A model generated the notes under the pieces. It was given only the letters and a program-made list of their open reading frames with translations, did no database searches and was not told where the DNA came from. The translations under genes were made by a program, and so were the position numbers. Shown one piece after another: positions 563 through 17,284 of a stretch of DNA of 64,000 nt. Within the stretch, counting starts at the first letter, position 1; the number at the start of each line of letters is the position of its first letter. Source of the stretch: Macrostomum lignano (lineage: Eukaryota); assembly GCA_002269645.1 (NCBI GenBank), contig NIVC01003106.1, forward strand, positions 55,100 to 119,099. The letters run 5' to 3'.

Positions 563-1595
563 TGTGGCAGGTGGCTGCCCCTGGTTTAAATAATATTTAT
601 TTACTCATTCAATTTAATAGACATTTATTAACTTTCAAAATTTGGTGCTTTTCCTTTTACGATAAGTGCAAGCCATTTTTTTGTTTTCCCATGTAGGGCC
701 AAGTTACCGAAAATTTTGTCACGCACCCCATCTTGCAATGGGATATTTTAATCTCCACCCCGTGCCAACTTGCTATCCCTTCATTCCCTTTTTGCATACC
801 ACATTTAATTGCATGTATTTTCATTACTCTGCCATCGCTGGACCAGACGGGTTTCGTATGCTTTCCTTAATCTGGTCCAGCGGCAAACTTTACGTCACGT
901 TTACTTATAAAATGTGCATCTGTTTGTGTTTTGGTTTAACCTCCACCTCCACCTCCTCCTCCTCCTCCTCCACCTACTTTTCCCTCCATTTTGACGTGTT
1001 AGTTTAATTCGGTACTCCTTCTGCTTACTCTTTTAGTTTTATTTCATTTTAATTAATTGTCGCACCGCGGCCCACCGAAGCTCATCCTCGTCAGTAATAA
1101 TAATCTATTCATCCTGCTCAATAAATCCCAACAAATAAAGAAATAATATCGATTCAATTTATTAATACATTAATAGGTGACTTTAAGCCGTAGCCTATCT
1201 TGAATCTTTTGCCCGTGGGGCATAAAATAACCAAGTTTCCTCAGCTAAAGAAAAGCTCCGAGACTTATCCATTCCGTAATACGTAAATTACAGTGGTGGC
1301 AGCTCTACCCTACTGGAAGTAATAAGCTCAGCAAAACGACACATTAACTACGGTGCCTACATTTCCGGTGTTTTCATCGCTTTGAACGACCGGCCGCTAC
1401 ACAACCACTCTGCTACGAGTATGACTACCCTCCCCCGGACTTGGGGACCCCGGCTGTTGGAGTAAAAGGAGAAGATTACGTTGTGATTCGTCTGCGCAAA
1501 ATTTCCGGCTTTACTTGTGCGAATGCAATGCTACCGGGTTTACACGAAAACCGGCCAACTTTCAACTTTGTCAATTCTTCTCCACCCCCACCTCA
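563..1595 (+). repeat. 5' LTR
   Basis: Starts TGTGGCAGG and ends CCACCTCA; aligns along its whole length with 9316-10350. Confidence 0.93.
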
Positions 1596-1596
1596 C

Positions 1597-1617
1597 TGGT
1601 GTCAGCTAAGTGGGATT
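1597..1617 (+). promoter_or_regulatory. Primer binding site, tRNA-Leu type, with a 2-nt insertion
   Basis: TGGTGTCAG(CT)AAGTGGGATT lies 1 nt after the LTR; it is complementary to the tRNA-Leu 3' end AATCCCACTTCTGACACCA. Confidence 0.85.
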
Positions 1618-1661: not shown

Positions 1662-3065
1662 ATGGCTTCAACTAATGATCCAACGGCCGCAGACGCAACA
1701 GCCGACGCCGCAGGCCCCGACAACTCAACTACTAGACCGACCTATGACAAGATGATTTGTGCAGTGACCGATGAGGTGCACCGGAGACTGGAGCAGACTA
1801 GCCTGGGCCAGCTGCAACACCATCACTATGTGTGCCAGCAGCCCCAGCAGCAGGATCGAGCTCCAGCGCCAAAACCAGTCAAGATCCAGTGGTACACGCC
1901 CAACCAGAAATTTGACGTCTGGATCAAGGCTCTCAAAGAGCGATGCAAGCTCAACAGGATCAATGACGACAGACAAAAGAAGGCAGAGGTCCTCGTGAAT
2001 CTGGACATCGCCACAGCCTACCCTGCAGTTGTCAGGATGGAGTTTGGTGAGTTCAAACAACAATTGTCTAAGCGTTTTACGCATGTCGCCGACACGCTGG
2101 AGTACCGGGAGCAATTTCGAAGCTGCCAGCAAGGCAAGAACGAGAGTGTGGACAACTACGGCGACCAACTAATTGCTTTGGCCGATTGAGCGTTCCCGCA
2201 TTTTACCCCAGTTCAGAAGCAGGTTGAACTGGTGGATCAGTTCACTGTGGGAGTGCGGATTGCTCAGTTGGCCCGAGAACAGCTAATCCTGGTGCAATCC
2301 CCAAATCTGACCGCAGCGAGACGGGCCGTGCTACGCCTGGAGACAGCAGCTAGCATGGCTCAGCGTATAGCACTGCCGCCAGCAGCGAGACACGTCCGGG
2401 TTCTTGAGGATGACAACGATCAGATGCCCACTGTGGTGCAACACGACAAGTCATCTCGGCCCAAGGAAAACTGGTTGCGAGAAGTCATGGAACAAGCTGA
2501 GACACAGCAAGAGCAGCGACGCCTACTTGAAACTTTGAGTAATGCGATGCGAGAGTTCTACTCGCGGGGATTGCGCAACAACGACACCCCGGAGCCATGG
2601 GAACCTTGACACCAGTCGCGGGACTCGTAGGACCAACGCTCTAGATGTCTAGTACATCCGACACCTCGCCGCAGTGCCGACGGAAGTGCCCAATTTACAA
2701 CGCCCAGCAAAAAGAACTGTGCCGCACGACCAGTTCCAGCGACTTCAGCAACCAAAAGACGGCAGCAACCCGCCACCGAGAACCCGCCAGCAGGAGGTCA
2801 ACATTGACAGCAACAGCTGCAGCAGCAGCTGCAGCAGCAGCTGCAGCAGCAGCAACAGCAGCAACAATCAAGTTCAAGACCGCTGCCCTATCAGTTGCGA
2901 CGGCAAAGTGCAATGTGCTACAGGTGCAACTGCGAGCATTGCGCTGACAAATGCCCGCACTGACGGTCGGCCAGCACTGCGTCCCAGCACAACAGCAGCT
3001 TGGGAAACGGGATGGCTGGACGTGCCATCAGGGGCAGCACCATCCAGCAGCCGTGCCAGCACTAA
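1662..3065 (+). pseudogene. gag: gag: capsid-like region, polyQ tract, CX2CX3HX4C knuckle
   Basis: One frame from ATG 1662 to TAA 3063, with in-frame stops at 2187, 2607, 2628, 2805 and 2961. Motifs: CQQGKNESVDNYGDQL and CYRCNCEHCADKC (from 2916). Confidence 0.85.
3002..3048 (+). promoter_or_regulatory. -1 ribosomal frameshift signal (G GGA AAC plus downstream stem/pseudoknot)
   Basis: The heptamer is in the gag frame and pol lies in the -1 frame; a GATGGC/GCCATC stem sits at 3011-3029. Confidence 0.7.
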
Positions 3066-6000
3066 AGTCCCCACCGCAGACTTTAGTCGCTCAGCAGGCC
3101 ACTGCTGAGCCCGCCTCCGCCGCACCTGTACAGAGCTTTGCACCCAAGCGACCTCAAATAGATCCGTTTTTAACTGGTGAGATTCAGGGTCATTATTTTG
3201 CTTTTCTACTTGACACCAGTTCTAAGTGCGAAGTCCTAGGCTTCAGCACCTGGCATCGCCTATGTACTGATGACCCAACCCTGTGTGGCCAAATCAAGCC
3301 CTGCCTACAGCGCATCGTGACCTACAATGGTGAACCAATTCAGATGGCAGGAGAATTAACCATTAAAGTGAAGATTGGGAATTTCGAGCCTACAGTCAAG
3401 TTTCTGCTAGCGAAAGGATCTCATGACAACATCCTGGGTTTCGAGTTTCTGGAGAAGTACAGCACCTCACTGGATCTCGCCGCTGGGATGCTATTCTTCA
3501 AGGACGGCACTGCTGCACCACTCCGTTACACACGAACAGAAGCGACAACGTCCAGAATTTACACGGCTGAGAGCACAACCGTGCCGCCGCTATCATCAGC
3601 CCGAATCAAGATTAAACTTGCCAAAGGACAAGAGAACCAGGGTATACCCGCCATGATCGAGCCGTTGAAACCGGCTCGGCGCGAAGAAGATGTGCAGCAC
3701 CTGGACGCCGCGCCTGCCCTGATATCTATGGCCAATGGAGAAGGTGCTATCAAGATGATTAATCGGGGAACAACATCAATCAAAGTACAAGCGAATGCCT
3801 TAGTCGGGATTGCTAGACCCATCAGACTGCCTGAGTTACAGTTCTTCCCGCTGCTGAAGCCAGAAGACTTGGTCAATCAAATCCAAGACAAAGATCCTGA
3901 TGCTTGGATCAAGGAGATTGACATCAGGGAAGATCTCAAGCTCAAGTCATCGAGCTATTGAAGAAGTACAAGACCATCTTCTCTCAGGGGCCACACGATC
4001 TCGGCCAAACCCACCTGGTCACCCACAGTATTGTGCTAAAGGACACGAATCCGGTGCATCTGCCAACTCGCCGGATCCCGCCGCATCTGCTACCCAAAGT
4101 GGACCAGCTACTCGATGATCTGTTGGCCAAAGGCGTGATTTGACCGAGCTTCTCCAGCTACAACACTTTGCTGGTGATCATCCCGAAGAAGGATGGCAGC
4201 CTGCGAATTGTGCAAGATTTCCAGAGTCTGAATCAAAAGTGCGAGTATTTTCCGTACCCGATTCCTAACATCCAAGAAGCATTTGCCAGCCTTGAGCGAA
4301 GCCAGCTATTCAGCACATTCGACCTCAATAGCGGCTACTATCAGATTCCGCTGCGTCCAGAAGATCAGGATCTGACTGCCTTTGCTACGCTGCACTGCGG
4401 ACAATTTGCCTACAAGGTCATGCCTATGGGGCTAAGTTTAGCGCCAGCCAGCTTCATGCGCCTCATGAATGCTATACTCAATGGGATTACCTACAAAAGC
4501 GCAATAGCCTACCTGGATGACGTAATCGTTTATTCTAAGAAATTTAACAACCATCTGCTCTATATGGAAGAGGTATTTAAGTGAACTCAAGATGCTAATT
4601 TAAAGTTTAAAGGCAAGAAATGTCATCTATTTCGGACCAGTTTAAACTATCTGGGACACGTTGTAACAAAGGATAGAATCAAGACTGACCCGGCAAAAAT
4701 CGAAGCTATTCAAACTTGGCCAAGACCAAAAACAGCTTGGCAACTGAAAAGTTTTGTCTGCACTTGCACTTATTATGCTAAATTTGTACCTGGCTACGCA
4801 GAACTTGCTGCTCCGCTTCACGATCTGATTAAGGAGAAGAAGATCCGAAATTTCAATTGTCTATGGGGAAAAGCCCAGCAAGACGCATTCGACTAGTTCA
4901 AGGCAGCTATGACTTTGACATCAGTGCTTGCGTATCCGCAGTTCAGCGAAGATCCGAATGTAATATTTGTCCTGGACACGGATACTTCTGCGACCAGAAT
5001 CGGAGCCTGCCTGAGCCAACAGAGTCCAACGGCGAGGCTACGCCGCCAGCAACATTGACAGCCGATAGCAAGTCGCTGACAGTGCTGCACCCGCCGGCAA
5101 CGAAGCCGAGGCCATCAGCCAGCCGTCTGCGAGACTCTCAGAGGTCGCCCACCAGTTTTAGCAGTACGACATGTTGCCCATCAAGGAGCCGCCGTCTACT
5201 AGCTGAAGGCGACGGGGACAGCGACCACAGTGCAGCCAGCAACGACTGCTGCCAACCCGTTTGCTATCCTGTGTTCAAAAAGGTGAGATTTAGCCTCGAC
5301 GCCGATAGCTCTGCTGACTCACTCTCATCTGTTGACGAATCCAATGCTGACGACACCGACGCCAAACTGACTGATGAGGATTGGCCTTCAAATCCTTCAA
5401 CGACCCAGCAACCGGCCAGAGTGGCAGTCGTGCGGAGGGAGCTCCAGACCCTGAACCATGATGCCACAGCCGAAGACACGCCGTCTAATTTGACTAACCG
5501 ACGCCAAGCCTTGAATCTAACTGATCACATCCCAAGGCCAATCACTCGTGAGGAGCTCCAGACTCACCAGCATGCTGATTCTGCCAGCATGATGATGATC
5601 AACCTTATCGAAAGTCGACAACCGAAGCCGCCGCTGAATCAGCGGTTAAATCTGACAAGAGATGAGCAAAATCTCTTAGCATTTTACGAACTGCTAGAGG
5701 TCCGAGACGATGGACTTTTAGTCATCCATCTTAACAATGTCGCTGAAGAGGACACAGCGAGGATCATCCTGCCAAAGAGTCTCAATGCCACGGTGTTCGC
5801 TGACCTGCATGGTTCGCCTACTGCGGACACATGGGCCGAGATCTCACCATCGCGAAGGTGCGCGAGAGGTTCTGGTGACTGGCCCTGGCCAAGGCCATGT
5901 CCAACTATGTCGCTTCCTGCCAGACCTGCACTCAGAGCAAAGGACGGCGACGCATCCCAGCGCATGTACAATCATTTCCGGTCTGCGAAATCTATGGGCA

Positions 6001-7073
6001 ATTCGTGATTGACATCATGGGCCCCACTGGAGACCCGACAGACCGAGGCAACAAGTACATCCTCACCTATGTCGACACGACATCGAAGTATCCATTTGCC
6101 TTCGCCATGAAGAATCAGCGGGCCAAGACGATCATAACTCTGCTCCAAGAACAAGTCTTCCCGATCACCAGAATCCCTGCATGGATCCATTCGGATCAAG
6201 GCAAGCAGTTCACCAGGCACGAGTTTCAACATTTCTGCGAAGTCTATGGCATTTAGCAAACGACAATGCCGCCATACTCGCCTTGGGCCAACGGACAAGC
6301 TAAATCGTACAATAAAAACATCAAAAAAGTGCTCACTTGTCTCCTGGAAGATCACCAACAATGGGAAAAGATGTTGCCAGCCACTTTGACAGCCCTGCGA
6401 TCTGCAGTCAACTGTACGACGGGTTTCTCGCCGCATTACGTCGTCTACGGAGTGCCCTATCGGTACCAATTGATAACACCCTAGACTGCCTGGACGTATC
6501 GCCGGACCTCCCTGAGTACATCGCAAAGCATCAGCGCAGACTGGCTGAGATCAAAAGAATTGTACGACAGCGATTGCGACTGAGATTTAACGCCGCAAAG
6601 AGTACTATGAAAACCGGCCTAAGCCCATGGAACTGCAGCCTGGAGACCTGGTCTGCCTGGCCAACCCGAAGCTCAAATTGGGAGAGCTGCCAAAGTTTCA
6701 CTGGCCATACAAGAGCTTGTACAAAGTCAACAGAAAGGTCGGCGAAGTAGCCTATTGGATCCAGCCAGCGACAGCCCTTTGAGGACACCCCGCTGAGATG
6801 TTGGTGCACTGCAACAACATCATCAAAGTGCCGCAAATGATGGTAAATCGACCGCAGGCGCCGCCGCGCCAAACCAAGCGGCCAATGTTGCCCTACGAGT
6901 CGAGCGACGACAGCGAAGTCGACCCAGCCAATCAGCCCACTCCTGAACAACCAGCCGCAGCTTAGCCTGACATGCGCAGCAGCCAATTGTTCGAGCCAAG
7001 CCCCCACCATCCGGAAGTGCTGCCCAAAGGCGACCCGGATTTGCCTGATATCGGTGCGGAGATTGAAGTTTGA
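3002..7073 (+). pseudogene. pol: pol polyprotein (protease, RT, truncated RNase H, integrase)
   Basis: Protease FLLDTS; RT IPKKDGSLR, DLNSGYYQI, MPMGL, YLDD, YLGH; RNase H start LDTDTS; integrase zinc finger, IDIMGP, HSDQGKQF, PWANGQA; GPY/F-like HWPYK. Multiple stops and frameshifts. Confidence 0.95.
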
Positions 7074-7208
7074 AAGGTAATTACCAATGCATTTTATGTC
7101 GCGCCAAGTTGCTAACTTTTGATGCACGTTACTATTAGTAGTTGATTTTGCGAACGCATTCCAATTTTTTAATTTTGCCGTAAGCTTTCTCTGCACCTGC
7201 TCTGTGCT

Positions 7209-7478
7209 GAAAGCAGTTTTTTATATTTTAATTTCAATGTACTTTCCTTATGCTTCAGGGTTAAAAGCAATTCTCATTTTCCTTATGCTTTCAGGTAAAA
7301 GCAGGTGTCAAATTTTAATTTCAATGTACTTTCCTTATGCTTTAGGGTTAAAAGCAATTCTCATTTTCCTTATGCTTTTAGGTAAAAGCAGGCATCAAAT
7401 TTTAATTTCAATGTACTTTCCTTATGCTTCAGGGTTAAAAGCAATTCTCATTTTCCTTATGCTTTTAGGTAAAAGCAG
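7209..7478 (+). repeat. 87-bp tandem repeat x~3 in the retrotransposon 3' non-coding region
   Basis: Three near-identical units, each made of two related TTCCTTATGCTT(T/C)AG...AAAAGCA halves. Confidence 0.9.
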
Positions 7479-8576
7479 TGTGTATTTGATCAGTTTCGTG
7501 CTCATGTACAGTGTATAATTTGCTATTATCCAACGCGGTTCATTAATCAGCACTTCTGCTCTTCATATTTCTCCCTTTGCTGCAGTAAAGCCTGCGCTAA
7601 TGCAACTTATTTAATCAATGCGTTAAATTTTTATTCAATGTGATACTATAAAATCATTGCTTAATTGCATTCTCATCTAATTTTGCGCCTCCCCATTTGC
7701 TATAAACTTCTTGCACGCGATCAAAGTGCAGAAGTGTCCCAATTTTCTTGCCTTAAGCCTTTCGGAGAAAAGCAACTAATTTTTGCAAACTTTGCAGTTA
7801 GTTTCATGCTGAAGGTCCCTCTCTTCTATTTGTGTGCCCACTGCCTAAGGGCCAAACTGTCATTTGCCCCACCTAGGTCAAGAGCCCAGTTTTCCAACTA
7901 GGCCTTGTCCTCAGTGGAGGCCTTTTGAGGTGACTCGACCCCTGTTTTCTTTGTTCAATTTAGTTTGAGCCTGGGAAAATTTCGTGAGGGCTGACTTTTG
8001 TTTCCCCTCTCCCAGTGCCAGTCGTTTGCTCTTGTTTTCCTGTAACTCCTTGTTGAGCCCACCAGTTTGACAATTTTGGTCACTAACTTACTTATACTAT
8101 ATTATCTTAGCTATAAGGAGCCACAATTGCTCCCTCTTTCTATCTATTTTTCTATTTACTGTTTAACGCGATGTTCAGCTTTCCCAACCACCAACCCGTT
8201 TAATGTGAGCCGCTTAGGTGCCCCCAATTCATTCAAATCAGGAACCCTGCCGCGTGTTTACCTGTTTTATAGCCTTTTGGATTTAACCACCCACCCCTTC
8301 ACCATGCATGCCCGCCATAGAGTGCATGCAGGGTGGAGGCCTGTTCCCAGTTAGGGACCCCTCATTTCCATCTGCGTGACGGTATTCTGAGTATATAAGT
8401 CGCACCCTGGCTCTGATTCTTTTTCTAATTGTTAATTATCCGGCTTGCCACTTATATTCAGCCGACATCATTCGATTGTGACCAATTGACTAATCCATTA
8501 ATCCGGCGACCGGGCTCAACTTCATTTGTCTCGTCGCCATGCCCGATCATGGAGTGCTGGCACCCCCGACTGGCGG

Positions 8577-9263
8577 ATGTTCAACATCCCAATAATTTCT
8601 GGGCCATCCGAGCTCCACACACCTCCTGCGCCCGCCCCAAGCCCGGACGTCGGAGTCGAGCAGTACCTGGACCTAGTCCACGCCACGCCTGCGCTGGAGG
8701 CCGACGACACCGATTTCTTGTGGCTGCTAGAGTACGGCCCCGAAGTCACGCCACCATCTGCCTGGTCAAGCACCTCCAGCCAGGCCTACTCGGAGGCGTC
8801 GGGCACCTCAGCCTTGGAAGCAGCCCCAATGGCCAGTGTGGAGCCGGCCCAAATGCTCCAGGAACTACTTTACCTGGAATTGCTGCATCCCCAGGAGCCG
8901 AGACATGTTAACGATTGTCGGACTTGGGACATTGTGGCCCGCCAGCATTCAGCCGCCGACACCACCCTGGCGCTCGAGGCCGAGGTGGCCCTAACGGGTC
9001 TCTGGCTGCAAGCTGAGACCACTGGCCCACAGCTGGGACCCTGTTGCACACTTGTTGCTCGATATGTGGAGCATGTCTGGCAACGCGGCATCCCGCCGGT
9101 CATTGATAACCCGTGCAGAGTGGCCCGAGTAGCGAGCTCGTCCGCTCAGTCGAACCTAAGCGAGACGCCGAGTGAGACGCCGGCTGTGACGTCGACCGAG
9201 GACCGCAGCTCTCGCCCTCCGACTCGCGGCCGGGCACCCACCAGCCAAGGCGGACGTCAGTGA
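8577..9263 (+). CDS. Extra ORF (228 aa, unknown function) inside the Gypsy element
   Basis: Uninterrupted GC-rich ORF between pol and the 3' LTR; TATATAAG at 8392-8399; no recognisable domain. Confidence 0.5.
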   Translation: MFNIPIISGPSELHTPPAPAPSPDVGVEQYLDLVHATPALEADDTDFLWLLEYGPEVTPPSAWSSTSSQAYSEASGTSALEAAPMASVEPAQMLQELLYLELLHPQEPRHVNDCRTWDIVARQHSAADTTLALEAEVALTGLWLQAETTGPQLGPCCTLVARYVEHVWQRGIPPVIDNPCRVARVASSSAQSNLSETPSETPAVTSTEDRSSRPPTRGRAPTSQGGRQ

Positions 9264-9315
9264 TTGACAATAGGAGTACTGTAATTTTGCTTGCAAATCC
9301 TGACCCGCCCGTGCT

Positions 9316-10350
9316 TGTGGCAGGTGGCTGCCCTTGGTTTTAATAATATTTATTTACTCATTCAATTTAATAGACATTTATTAACTTTCAAAATTTGGTG
9401 CTTTTCCTTTTACGATAAGTGCAAGCCATTTTTTTGTTTTCCCATGTAGGGCCAAGTTACCGAAAATTTTGTCACGCACCCCATCCCGCAATGGGATATT
9501 TTAATCTCCACCCCATGCCAACTTGCTATCCCTTCATTCGCCTTTTTGCATACCACATTTAATTGCATGTATTTTCATTACTCTGCCATTGCTGGACCAG
9601 ATGCGTTTCGTATGCTTTCCTTAATCTGGTCCAGCGGCAAACTTTACGTCACGTTTACTTATAAAATGTGCATCTGTTTGTGTTTTGGTTTAACCTCCAC
9701 CTCCACCTCCTCCTCCTCCTCCTCCACTACTTTTCCCTCCATTTTGACGTGTTAGTTTAATTCGGTACTCCTTCTGCTTACTCTTTTAGTTTTATTTCAT
9801 TTTAATTAATTGTCGCACCGCGGCCCACCGAAGCTCATCCTCGTCAGTCATAATAATCTATTCATCCTGCTCAATAAATCCCAACAAATAAAGAAATAAT
9901 ATCGATTCAATTTATTAATACATTAATAGGTGACTTTAAGCCATAGCCTATCTTGAATCTTTTGCCCGTGGGGCATAAAATAACCAAGTTTCCTCAGCTA
10001 AAGAAAAGCTCCGAGACTTATCCATTCTGTAATACGTAAATTACAGTGGTGGCAGCTCTACCCTACTGGAAGTAATAAGCTCAGCAAAACGACACATTAA
10101 CTACGGTGCCTACATTTCCAGTGTTTTCATTGCTTTGAACGACCGCGCCGCTACACAACTGCTCCGCTACGAGTATGACTACCCTCCCCCAGGACTTGAG
10201 GACCCCGGCTGTCGGAATAAAAGGAGAAGATTACATTGTGATTTGCCTACGCAAAATTTCCGGCTTTACTCGTGCGAATGCAGTGCTACCAGGTTTACAC
10301 AAAAACTGGCCAACTTTCAACTTTGTCAATTCTTTTCCACCCCCACTTCA
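9316..10350 (+). repeat. 3' LTR
   Basis: Direct repeat of 563-1595 running TGTGG...CTTCA; no PBS follows it. Confidence 0.93.
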
Positions 10351-10538
10351 TTATTCAAGTATTATTGTTACATTGATTTAAATATAAAATATTCAAATAG
10401 CACTATTGTATATATTTTGAATATTCCATATATTATTGTTTGTTTGTTTGCTAGTTGTGTCCTAGGCCTACCTTGTATCCTAGGCCTATCATATTCTGCC
10501 TGTTTCCCAAATCTGGATCATGCTTAGTGCATGCCTAA

Positions 10539-10756
10539 ACAAAAATTAAATAGTTATAAACATGCTTGGGCGCAACCTTGGGATTCACCCGGCCGTTTCT
10601 ATTGGCAACACATGCATGTAAGTCGCTATTGGCTGAGAGCAGTCACGTGACTACTGTTCTGTCCAATAGTGACTTACATGCGTGTGTTGCCAATAGAAAC
10701 GGCCGGGTGAATCCCAAGGTTGCGCCCAAGCATGTTTATAACTATTTAATTTTTGT
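10539..10756. mobile_element. ~218-bp near-perfect palindromic (foldback/MITE-like) element, copy 1
   Basis: The arms are reverse complements around a central GTCACGTGAC; a related copy lies at 47645-48753. Confidence 0.8.
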
Positions 10757-15079: not shown

Positions 15080-17284
15080 AAGGAATTACGATGATGGACT
15101 CAGTGCTGTTTTCATCGCTTCAAAGTTTGGTTATCAACAAGTCTTGGATTCGCTGATCAAAGCCAAAGTCGACATCAATCTTCGGATCAGGAGTGGTGTG
15201 ACACCTCTTCTAATTGCGTCTGAAAATGATTATCAACAAGTCGTAGACTCTCTCATTAGCGCGCAGGCTCTCGTTAATCTCCAAGAGATTACTGCACTGG
15301 CGGCTGTTCACCTCTCTACATTGCATCACAGAATGGTCACAGCATCATAGTAGACTTGCTTATAAAATCCCAAGCCGATGTCAATTTGCAGCAGAACCAA
15401 GGCGGCTCGCCTCTATGTATTGCAGCACAAAATGGTCACCATCTGATCGTAGACTTACTGATTAAAGCCCAAGCCGACGTCAATATTCAACTTTGCACTG
15501 GAGAGTCACCTCTTTACATTGCATCACAGAATGGTTTTCAGCAACTTGTTGAGTTACTCATCAAAGCACAAGCCGATGTAAATCTTCAAAACAGCCAAGG
15601 CGGCTCGCCTCTATACATTGCATCGCACAAAAAGTCGTCAAATTACTTATTGATGCAAAAACCAGCGTCGATCTCCAAGAAACTGGTGGCTGCTCACCGC
15701 TTCTCATGGCGTCACAAAAAGGTCACAAACAAATAGTTCTATTGCTAACCGAAGCGCAAGCGGACACCAATATTCAACTTAAAACTGGCGTAACATCCCT
15801 GATATTTGCATCACAGAACGGTCATCTGCAGGCAGTGAATTCGCTAATTACGTAGTGCCCAAGCCGATGTCAACCACCAGGAGAAGACAGAAGGATGCTC
15901 ACCTGTCTTCGGGAATGGTCATCGGGAAGTTTTAGATTTACTAATCAAAGCGCAAGCAGATGTAAATCTTCAACGAAACACAGGCGAGTCATTTCTTTAT
16001 GTTCCATCGCAGAATGGTTATAAATTTGTTGTCGGCACACTCATCAGAGCGCAAGCCGACATCGATCTTGACAGAACTGATGGCGAGTCACCTCATCTGT
16101 ACATTGCAGCTGAATATGGACATCAGGACGTTGTGGACTCACTAGTTAAAGCCCAAGCTGTCGTCAATGCTAGGGCAGCCGATGGCAGCTCACCGCTCTT
16201 CGTTGCGTCGCAGAATGGCCACCTGAATGTTTCAGAATCTCTCATAAAAGCTAAAGCCGATGCTAATCTTCAAAGAAGCGGTGGTGACTTACCTCTCTTC
16301 ATTGCATCACAAAATGGTCACCAACAAATAGTAGATGCACTCATTAAAGCAAATGCGTTCCTTGATCTCAATGGTTTTGGCGGCTGCTCGCCACTACATT
16401 GCTTCGCAGAATGGGCATCAGAAGGTGGCTGAGGCGTTGATTCTTGCACAAGCCGACGTCAATATTCAAAATGACGCTGGCTGCTCAGCTCTCTACGTTG
16501 CATCTCAAAATGGTCACGAGCAAGCAGTGAAATCACTTATTCGAGCAAAAGCTGAAGTCAACGCTCAGCGAAAATCTGGCGAGACACCTCTAATAATTGC
16601 GTCTCAAAATGGTCATCGTCAAGTTGTAAACTTGCTCATTAAAGCACAAGCTGACGTGAATATTCTAAGAAACAATAACAAGTCACCACTCCACTATGCA
16701 TCACAGAAAGAGCATTTGCGAATTGTTGAATCTGTGATACGAGCACAAGCCGACATGAATATCCAACGTAAATCCGGCTGCTCACCTCTTTACCTTGCGG
16801 CGCAGAACGGTCACAGTCTCGTTGTGGACCTACTCATCAAGGCACAAGCGGACGTCGATCTTCGACGTAACACTGGCGCCACACCTCTCTACATTGCATC
16901 CCGCAATGACAAATTAACTGTAGTGAATTCACTTATCAAAGCGCATGCCGATGCAAATCTTCGGTGCAACACTGGCGAGTCACCTCTGTATGTTGCATTG
17001 CAGAATGGCCATGATCGGATAGTGAAGTTACTCATCTGGGCTCAAGCCGATATCAATATTCAATGAAAACTGGCGAGTCACCTCTCTACATTGCAGCACA
17101 GAATGGTCACAATAAAGTTTTAGAGCTACTTCTATTTGCCGCAAATGCTGATCATTCAAAAAAGTGTCTTCAAACTTTATTGCTCCGTGCTCAAGAATTT
17201 GGCAACGAAGTGGCTGCTAGAATGCTTATTTTTGCACTAGAAGGCGCTAATCAGCCGAATAATGAAGATTCTAAAAAGGTTTGA
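15080..17284 (+). pseudogene. Intronless ankyrin-repeat gene (~20 repeats), multiply frameshifted
   Basis: Tandem GxSPLYIASQNGHxxVVxLLIKAQADVN units, with at least six frame breaks or small deletions. Confidence 0.85.

Follow-up and report, generated by a model that had tools for sequence, protein, structure and literature searches.

The third open reading frame (ORF3) of a Ty3/gypsy retrotransposon family in Macrostomum lignano is, by sequence comparison across its copies, a family-wide, selected, non-envelope accessory gene. The comparisons further showed that its body is one of two mutually exclusive cassettes, A or B, which are found in a ratio of about 1:1 in elements that are nearly identical elsewhere. 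The copy from which the analysis started lies in a stretch of 64,000 nucleotides (the window). A preliminary description of the window had reported a third ORF behind an internal TATA box, but missed its start at 8539 and the exchangeable two-cassette nature of the ORF body. The finding is real and more interesting than that first reading, and the function of the gene is only predicted.

The window contains a decayed Ty3/gypsy LTR retrotransposon (Metaviridae), which we assigned on the basis of its direct LTRs with TG...CA ends, the target duplication, the tRNA primer site, and gag followed by a pol in the order PR-RT-RH-INT. The features of the element, in window coordinates, were as follows.

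559-562 versus 10351-10354, flanks of the element: target duplication of 4 bp with one mismatch
563..1595, + strand: 5' LTR with TG...CA ends and a TATA-like box near 905
1597..1617, + strand: primer-binding site, presumably tRNA-Leu-like, kept in sister copies
1662..3062, + strand: gag, broken by stops (PF03732, E 0.0018, below the cut-off)
2759..7073, + strand: pol, order PR-RT-RH-INT, with stops and frameshifts
7075..7082, + strand: candidate splice-donor-like motif directly 3' of the pol stop, present in 40/48 loci
7225..7485, + strand: three 87-nt tandem repeats
8139..8403, + strand: conserved non-coding block, the predicted internal promoter region
8292..8343, + strand: predicted RNA hairpin (z -3.7 in the window copy)
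8392..8399, + strand: TATA box, position conserved
8539..8541, + strand: start codon of ORF3 in the family; in the window copy it is not in frame with the ORF
8542..9199, + strand: exchangeable cassette, type A in the window copy (acidic Pro-rich arm and helical core)
8549..8911, + strand: overlapping ORF without selection, not counted as a gene
8577..9263, + strand: open part of ORF3, 228 aa (P0001), dN/dS 0.41 (0.24-0.70) against sister L041
8835..9143, + strand: conserved core of type A, a predicted five-helix bundle
9200..9263, + strand: Arg/Gly-rich tail, common to A- and B-type copies of the window lineage
9300..9315, + strand: C-rich stretch at the expected polypurine tract site, alike in sister copies
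9316..10350, + strand: 3' LTR, 96% identical to the 5' LTR

The end of pol at 7073 (stop 7071-7073) and the stops in gag and pol were as previously described. Over about 1,450 aligned codons, the pol of the window copy was interrupted by 11 stops and changed frame about 5 times, and it lacked about 164 codons near 5020 (the RNase H end and linker) compared with an uninterrupted sister. The pol domains were located in sister L041 at PR 148-241, RT 488-648, RH 716-849, and INT 1184-1354. Two loci matched the window copy at 99%, one of them with its 3' flank (L039) and the other with its 5' flank (L040); because of these common flanks we took them as probably the window insertion assembled again, not independent copies. 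Of 20 loci tried, 18 gave an LTR match, and 11 of them had LTRs at least 99% identical.

Several further observations were made on the family and on the surrounding DNA. All 13 sister loci checked carried lineage-specific tandem arrays in the spacer (units of about 39-46, 61-63, or 87-89 nt), and the 87-nt unit of the window (7225-7485) includes splice-signal-like words. Transposase-like ORFs were seen by eye inside the spacer between pol and ORF3 at L069 (5768-8479) and L141 (4928-6799, both in oriented coordinates). The family lacks a polypurine tract and has a C-rich motif before the 3' LTR instead, even in young copies, whose LTRs are 99-100% identical; priming of the plus strand may therefore be unusual in the ORF3 family. 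The 3' end of the LTR in L011, L015, L019, L104, and L105 has its own end and the first primer-site bases repeated internally, about 60 nt before the true end. Two tandem copies with identical ORF3 lie 9.5 kb apart at L052 (G000:C1081, about 318-330 kb). Outside the element, the window holds a MITE-like inverted repeat at 10539-10756 (94-nt arms, 98% complementary) and a 99-nt repeat array at about 15125-17130, probably a coding gene with ankyrin repeats.

A search of the host's own genome with the ORF3 protein gave 67 matches among 100 scored candidates, with identity down to about 28%, and 40 match loci were examined with 10 kb of context. Family gag or pol lay upstream of ORF3 in 35 of these 40 loci, and in 6 the pol was uninterrupted over 1,545 codons or more. 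Compared with the window, the gag and pol of sister copies were mostly 75-95% identical and ORF3 mostly 26-43%, the closest copies excepted. Pairwise Nei-Gojobori dN/dS was 0.08-0.36 in the A core (upper bound below 1 in 14/14 pairs) and 0.06-0.54 in B in 10/10 pairs (2 intervals span 1), where the pairs are non-independent and several are saturated. Shifted-frame controls gave 1.7-6.0 in 7/8. The family-wide matches and low dN/dS bear out the proposal of a non-env accessory ORF under selection, by the comparison of copies suggested when it was made. The accompanying caution that survival of the frame is poor evidence of selection was also sound, since we estimate p at about 0.08 for a 228-codon frame at the stop density of the window; selection on ORF3 is settled by the comparative data, not by frame survival in the window. 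Between L047 and L050 the synonymous distance (dS) was 2.7 in ORF3 and 0.13 in INT, and with ORF3 dS so far above INT dS, pol was apparently exchanged among older ORF3-U3 lineages.

The unbroken 228-aa ORF runs from ATG 8577 to TGA 9261-9263 as first described, but it is not an undamaged gene, with a frameshift between 8539 and about 8555. ORF3 of sister copies starts about 13 codons before 8577, at the ATG equivalent to 8539, and the codon equivalent to 8577 is Ile in L011 and L013. The second, overlapping ORF at ATG 8549 (120 aa) exists, but its dN/dS against L041 was 1.59 (bootstrap 0.72-4.4), which does not indicate selection, and it bears stops in 3 of 5 matching sister loci (L002, L005, and L006).

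The type A protein consists of a disordered acidic Pro-rich arm, a predicted five-helix core (residues 90-170 modelled at pLDDT about 70-92), and a basic Arg/Gly tail. In alignment A2, 17 of 23 rows had a net charge of -7 to -19 in their N-terminal third. The tail, reported earlier as Ser/Thr/Arg, is Arg/Gly-basic across the family, with the last 30 residues net positive in 23/23 rows. The reading of the third ORF as something other than env was supported by a hydropathy maximum of 0.96 in the ORF (19-mer, Kyte-Doolittle), the acidic N-terminus, and the lack of a Pfam match. A membrane segment was absent from nearly all A and B copies, with a 19-residue hydropathy maximum of 1.73 over 40 A and B rows.

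Pfam gave no match for A or B, and no homologue was found among 5.8 billion proteins (P0001 and the B alignment, near lengths) or, for ORF3, in metagenome and viral contigs. ESM Atlas gave no usable match, the best score in the second search being 0.83, at the level of a lead. The A profile gave five matches among 1.84 billion proteins, of which two, including both strong ones, were Macrostomum element products, and the remaining three were rejected as short and repetitive. ORF3 is thus, as far as these searches detect, confined to Macrostomum, and remote homology is possible. With regard to a captured host exon, raised at the outset as a refuting outcome, no host-gene homologue of ORF3 was found in the protein, Pfam, and metagenome searches.

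Domain B, of about 150 residues, was found through a search with one divergent copy and is present in more than 80 of 134 matches (hand count). The B-type sister L058 shares the window sequence from 7336 through the ATG that ends at 8541; the shared sequence resumes at 9200, and B fills the interval. The last bases of the family ATG (8539..8541) are common to the two copies. Among 61 long loci, 59 carried one type only and 2 carried a B+A fusion in one frame. A census at the pol end showed 35 A, 36 B, 0 with both, and 6 with neither in the first 77 of 150 pol-end matches, which were ranked irrespective of cassette and include assembly duplicates. No third cassette type was seen in 20 unclassified pol ends (5 with A or B remnants and 15 without the promoter block).

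We compared nine A/B pairs chosen by eye on shared flanks. Promoter identity was 0.96-1.00 in 6 of the 8 measurable pairs and 0.72 and 0.87 in the remaining two, while INT identity was 0.91-0.996 in 7/7; the RT identity of pair S8 (0.559) was left out as mislocated onto an unrelated RT. The target duplications of A and B partners differed wherever both could be read, which identifies the partners as separate insertions. In a 34-row promoter tree the A/B label switched 14 times, with at least 10 switches forced by well-supported branches, against 11.4 in shuffles; the count is inflated, as the tree was built after near-duplicates of one type had been removed. Most promoter lineages hold both A and B, and some hold one type only.

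A and B are both lineage-specific. Distances among A cassettes and among B cassettes correlated over 9 lineages (Mantel r 0.59, p 0.002), and the two trees had a single supported cross-lineage grouping in common. The A cores are only 30-60% identical among the approximately nine lineages retaining both types, and cassette breakpoints differ by lineage. Within a lineage, we found no antisense complementarity between A and B cassettes (longest match 9.8 versus 9.6 nt). The fusion frame was open in the B+A loci L061, L062, and L080 (G000:C616, C1020, and C2108), and gag and pol were fragmented upstream in the two loci read with context. The fusion copies are possibly non-autonomous helpers or domesticated copies.

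The predicted models of A and B showed the same series of helices in a similar five-helix fold. In several unrelated PDB chains the two models aligned to identical or almost identical stretches of residues (for example 9la9, 758-886 and 758-884; 6vp9, 345-428 for both). A comparison of the A and B profiles was not significant (probability 0.3%, E 0.19), and its alignment paired the invariant Trp and the Gly-x-Pro motif. B has no acidic arm and has an extra small beta-hairpin; the B+A fusion also has no acidic arm. On the predicted models, A and B likely descend from one helical domain. The best fold match of A had Z 8.4, rmsd 3.0, and 98 aligned residues, and that of B had Z 8.0, rmsd 3.7, and 101 aligned residues. 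At E <=0.001, Foldseek gave no match for A in PDB or BFVD and none for B in BFVD. We rejected a translin/C3PO match of A and a cullin match of B, both at background level for helical bundles, and no DNA-binding fold was among the top fold matches of A or B. Prediction of an A+B complex scored 0.00 (without alignments, and with the partner fold uncertain).

Because both types are retained in about nine deep lineages, there is a good case that A and B are both kept by selection and not by drift. Under neutral redundancy, ORF3 would be a real helper and A and B redundant paralogues, shuffled by recombination or gene conversion between homologous flanks. The similar predicted folds, the lineage-specific breakpoints, and the lineages with one type only all agree with such shuffling; we nevertheless regard it as quite improbable, because drift should have fixed one type in many of the approximately nine lineages, and because the ratio is near 1:1 and the fusion lineage retains both domains. 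A different kind of selection would act if A and B were adaptors against different host restriction or silencing proteins, held by fluctuating or frequency-dependent selection with no mutual action. The disordered arm carries conserved short motifs, the helical matches of B include cullin N-termini (8gq6, Z 8.0; 4ap2, Z 7.2), and deep cassette lineages coexist with homogenised pol, all in favour of such antagonists. We judge this unlikely, given that dN/dS is low with no rapid adaptive change seen in the core, that the Z values fall within the helical-bundle background, and that the remainder of the element is common to both types; the shared remainder also means that a rare cassette would not be favoured by escape from small RNAs.

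Upstream of ORF3, the non-coding block of about 265 nt ends in a TATA-like box about 90-215 nt before the ORF3 start. When a profile of the block trained on 33 loci was applied to 26 others, 15 gave a match no more than 900 nt from the cassette, 13 of these with the TATA-like box in register; among the 11 without a match are copies with deletions or insertions and degenerate ones. The profile showed no match to the LTRs. Repeated palindrome-like motifs lie just upstream of the conserved TATA, and the order in the family is fixed as TATA, ATG, cassette, basic tail, and LTR. The TATA box TATATAAG was present in the window at 8392-8399 as reported, with GGGTGG (8331-8336) and TGACG (8377-8381) upstream of it. 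Of these two motifs TGACG was not conserved, lying within 60 nt of TATA in 3/21 promoters, and GGGTGG is the 3' arm of the conserved hairpin. The placing of a TATA box before the ORF therefore holds across the family in position, but with the start at 8539 and not at the assumed 8577. From these sequence features, transcription of ORF3 probably starts internally, at its own predicted TATA promoter.

Against this reading, contigs of runs guessed to be RNA span the region and cross the TATA box, and they revealed no transcription start, spliced form, or subgenomic RNA; starts, strand, and level are, however, not readable from contigs. From its predicted start onward, the B+A fusion is matched by a named protein record of M. 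lignano, PAA73306.1, and as the M. lignano gene set was built from RNA-seq (PMC5730564, in part), this record lends weak and indirect support to expression of the ORF3 fusion.

Expression from a spliced message, in the manner of env and with an incidental TATA box, is highly improbable. The donor motif is conserved at the pol stop, and in the young copy L136 (G000:C2067) the spacer between pol and ORF3 is deleted from exactly the donor to 9 nt before the ATG, so that L136 may be a retrotransposed spliced RNA with an acceptor that is only putative; L137 has a similar yet different spacer deletion. The nearest relatives of L136, however, have no AG at the 3' junction, and no acceptor AG was found at a fixed distance before the ORF3 start across lineages. 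No GT-AG joint into ORF3 was among the joints listed from contigs of the guessed-RNA runs, and a donor after pol would put ORF3 behind gag and pol.

The hairpin lies 50-100 nt upstream of the TATA box and reached z <=-2 in 7 of 20 copies, with z above -2 in 13 of 20. RNAalifold on the hairpin and the upstream block gave 0 pairs and no covarying structure. Given its position upstream of the TATA box, the hairpin would be present only in the long RNA.

Our best explanation, which we favour tentatively and on sequence grounds, is that ORF3 is a non-env accessory gene with two cassettes, likely with its own TATA promoter, encoding a predicted nuclear helper that acts on unspliced genomic RNA. The ORF3 RNA would be transcribed from the internal promoter, and its product would enter the nucleus, bind the unspliced genomic RNA of the element, and aid production or export of that RNA. 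With comparable reserve, we suggest that the genomic RNA is the target, that the Arg/Gly tail may grip it close to the conserved hairpin, which lies 3' of the conserved pol-stop donor, and that the acidic arm of A may recruit host factors. We ranked this Rev/CERV-like role of RNA helper first because of the basic tail, the donor motif in 40/48 loci, the hairpin, and the precedent of CERV. CERV, of C. elegans Cer1, is likewise a non-env accessory protein of an animal LTR retrotransposon; it is nuclear and required for export of unspliced genomic RNA, but it is translated from a spliced mRNA and is a large protein containing three structured domains (PMC10309623, in part). No sequence link between CERV and ORF3 was found, and no two-version cassette is described for CERV in the parts of that paper covered.

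Against the RNA-helper reading, no covarying RNA structure was predicted, and the strongly acidic arm fits a transcription activator equally well. The product could then be a Tas-like activator or anti-silencing factor whose core binds element DNA or chromatin, with the A arm activating the internal promoter and the LTR and with B as partner or dampener. The acidic N-terminal third, the palindrome-like repeats just upstream of the conserved TATA, and ORF3 and U3 lineages far older than the pol differences (L047-L050) are all in its favour, and the response elements bound by Tas itself are found both in the internal promoter and in U3 (PMC3798896, in part). We rank it second but on balance think it unlikely: no DNA-binding fold was among the top matches, the acidic arm is absent from B and from the B+A fusion, and co-inheritance with U3 is explicable by linkage alone. 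There was also no excess of 7- to 9-mers common to a copy's own internal promoter and U3 relative to other lineages (17 lineages/copies, p 0.58-0.86), in an exact-word comparison that could miss degenerate or family-wide sites.

Returning to the RNA helper, it is possible, though we lean slightly further from this than from the helper role itself, that A and B act together in trans and that recombination of co-packaged genomes swaps the cassette. Template switching between co-packaged genomes is established retroelement biology. The shared flanks, with breakpoints differing by lineage, suggest that cassettes would be swapped by recombination within those flanks. The fullest version is a two-type retrotransposon, in which A and B genomes would differ only in an idiomorph-like cassette, need each other in trans, be co-packaged and recombine, and have been held at about 1:1 across a deep radiation, with one lineage having escaped through the B+A fusion. 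We put this version forward as doubtful.

Mating-type idiomorphs of fungi are likewise two dissimilar sequences that alternate at a single slot, bounded by common flanks and similar in frequency, at host chromosomal loci. They are an analogy only to the A/B slot, and no mating function is implied. We further compared ORF3 with accessory genes of other elements, using the parts of the cited papers covered. The Tas/Bet genes of foamy viruses are also accessory genes 3' of the structural genes with an internal TATA promoter and divergent proteins, but their promoter sits within env, and DNA elements in it and in U3 are bound by Tas (PMC3798896, in part); the Macrostomum element has no env, no lineage-specific shared motif, and no homology to foamy virus. 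Oikopleura Tor elements are of Ty3/gypsy type with a third ORF from an internal promoter, although that ORF is a membrane Env glycoprotein (PMC4402516, in part). The additional ORFs of plants, such as gene23 of maize Grande, lie between pol and the 3' LTR with their own promoter; gene23 is a nuclear protein according to a cited title, and Retand carries a tandem repeat. In contrast to ORF3 they are antisense and found in plants, with no exchangeable pair described in the parts covered (PMC7264820, in part).

Bdelloid Juno and Vesta have diverse non-env ORF3s, with two types sometimes fused in one ORF, but these are captured enzymes (GDSL, DEDDy), family-specific and typically expressed via spliced messages (PMC5408684, in part), whereas A and B are two orphan domains inside the same lineages. 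Accessory ORFs also occur in the env-less LTR retrotransposons 412/MDG1, where sORF2 is a short transmembrane fusogen (bioRxiv 10.1101/2025.03.14.642691, in part), unlike A and B, which have no membrane segment in nearly all copies. The VANC proteins of VANDAL are element-encoded anti-silencing factors tied to family-specific non-coding sequence, but VANDAL are plant DNA transposons and no homology to A/B was seen (PMC5735166 and PMC10398659, in part); the Macrostomum tandem arrays track lineage, not cassette type. The M. lignano LTR survey, which names the Ty3/gypsy clades Mag, CsRN1, Gmr1/Osvaldo, and Mdg3 and reports heat-induced LTR families, does not mention extra ORFs in the parts covered, and the element motifs were not found in 5 of its supplements (PMC12801592, in part). 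In the parts covered, PMC13524379 deals only with env-bearing flatworm elements. We found no description of a Macrostomum retrotransposon ORF3 and no fitting bipartite or idiomorph-like retrotransposon in a literature search that stayed outside subscription papers, Repbase, and GyDB.

LTR retrotransposons were already known to carry non-env third ORFs and internal promoters, but few of these have a known function. The striking point is that two accessory cassettes, mutually exclusive and balanced in number, persist within the same lineages while pol is shuffled between them. Many copies are young, and with the transgenesis and LTR reporters available for M. lignano (PMC12801592, in part) the system is testable. 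If the two types do depend on each other, the family would represent a retroelement whose genomes come in two complementary types, and would offer a testable case of trans-acting public goods surviving in selfish elements.
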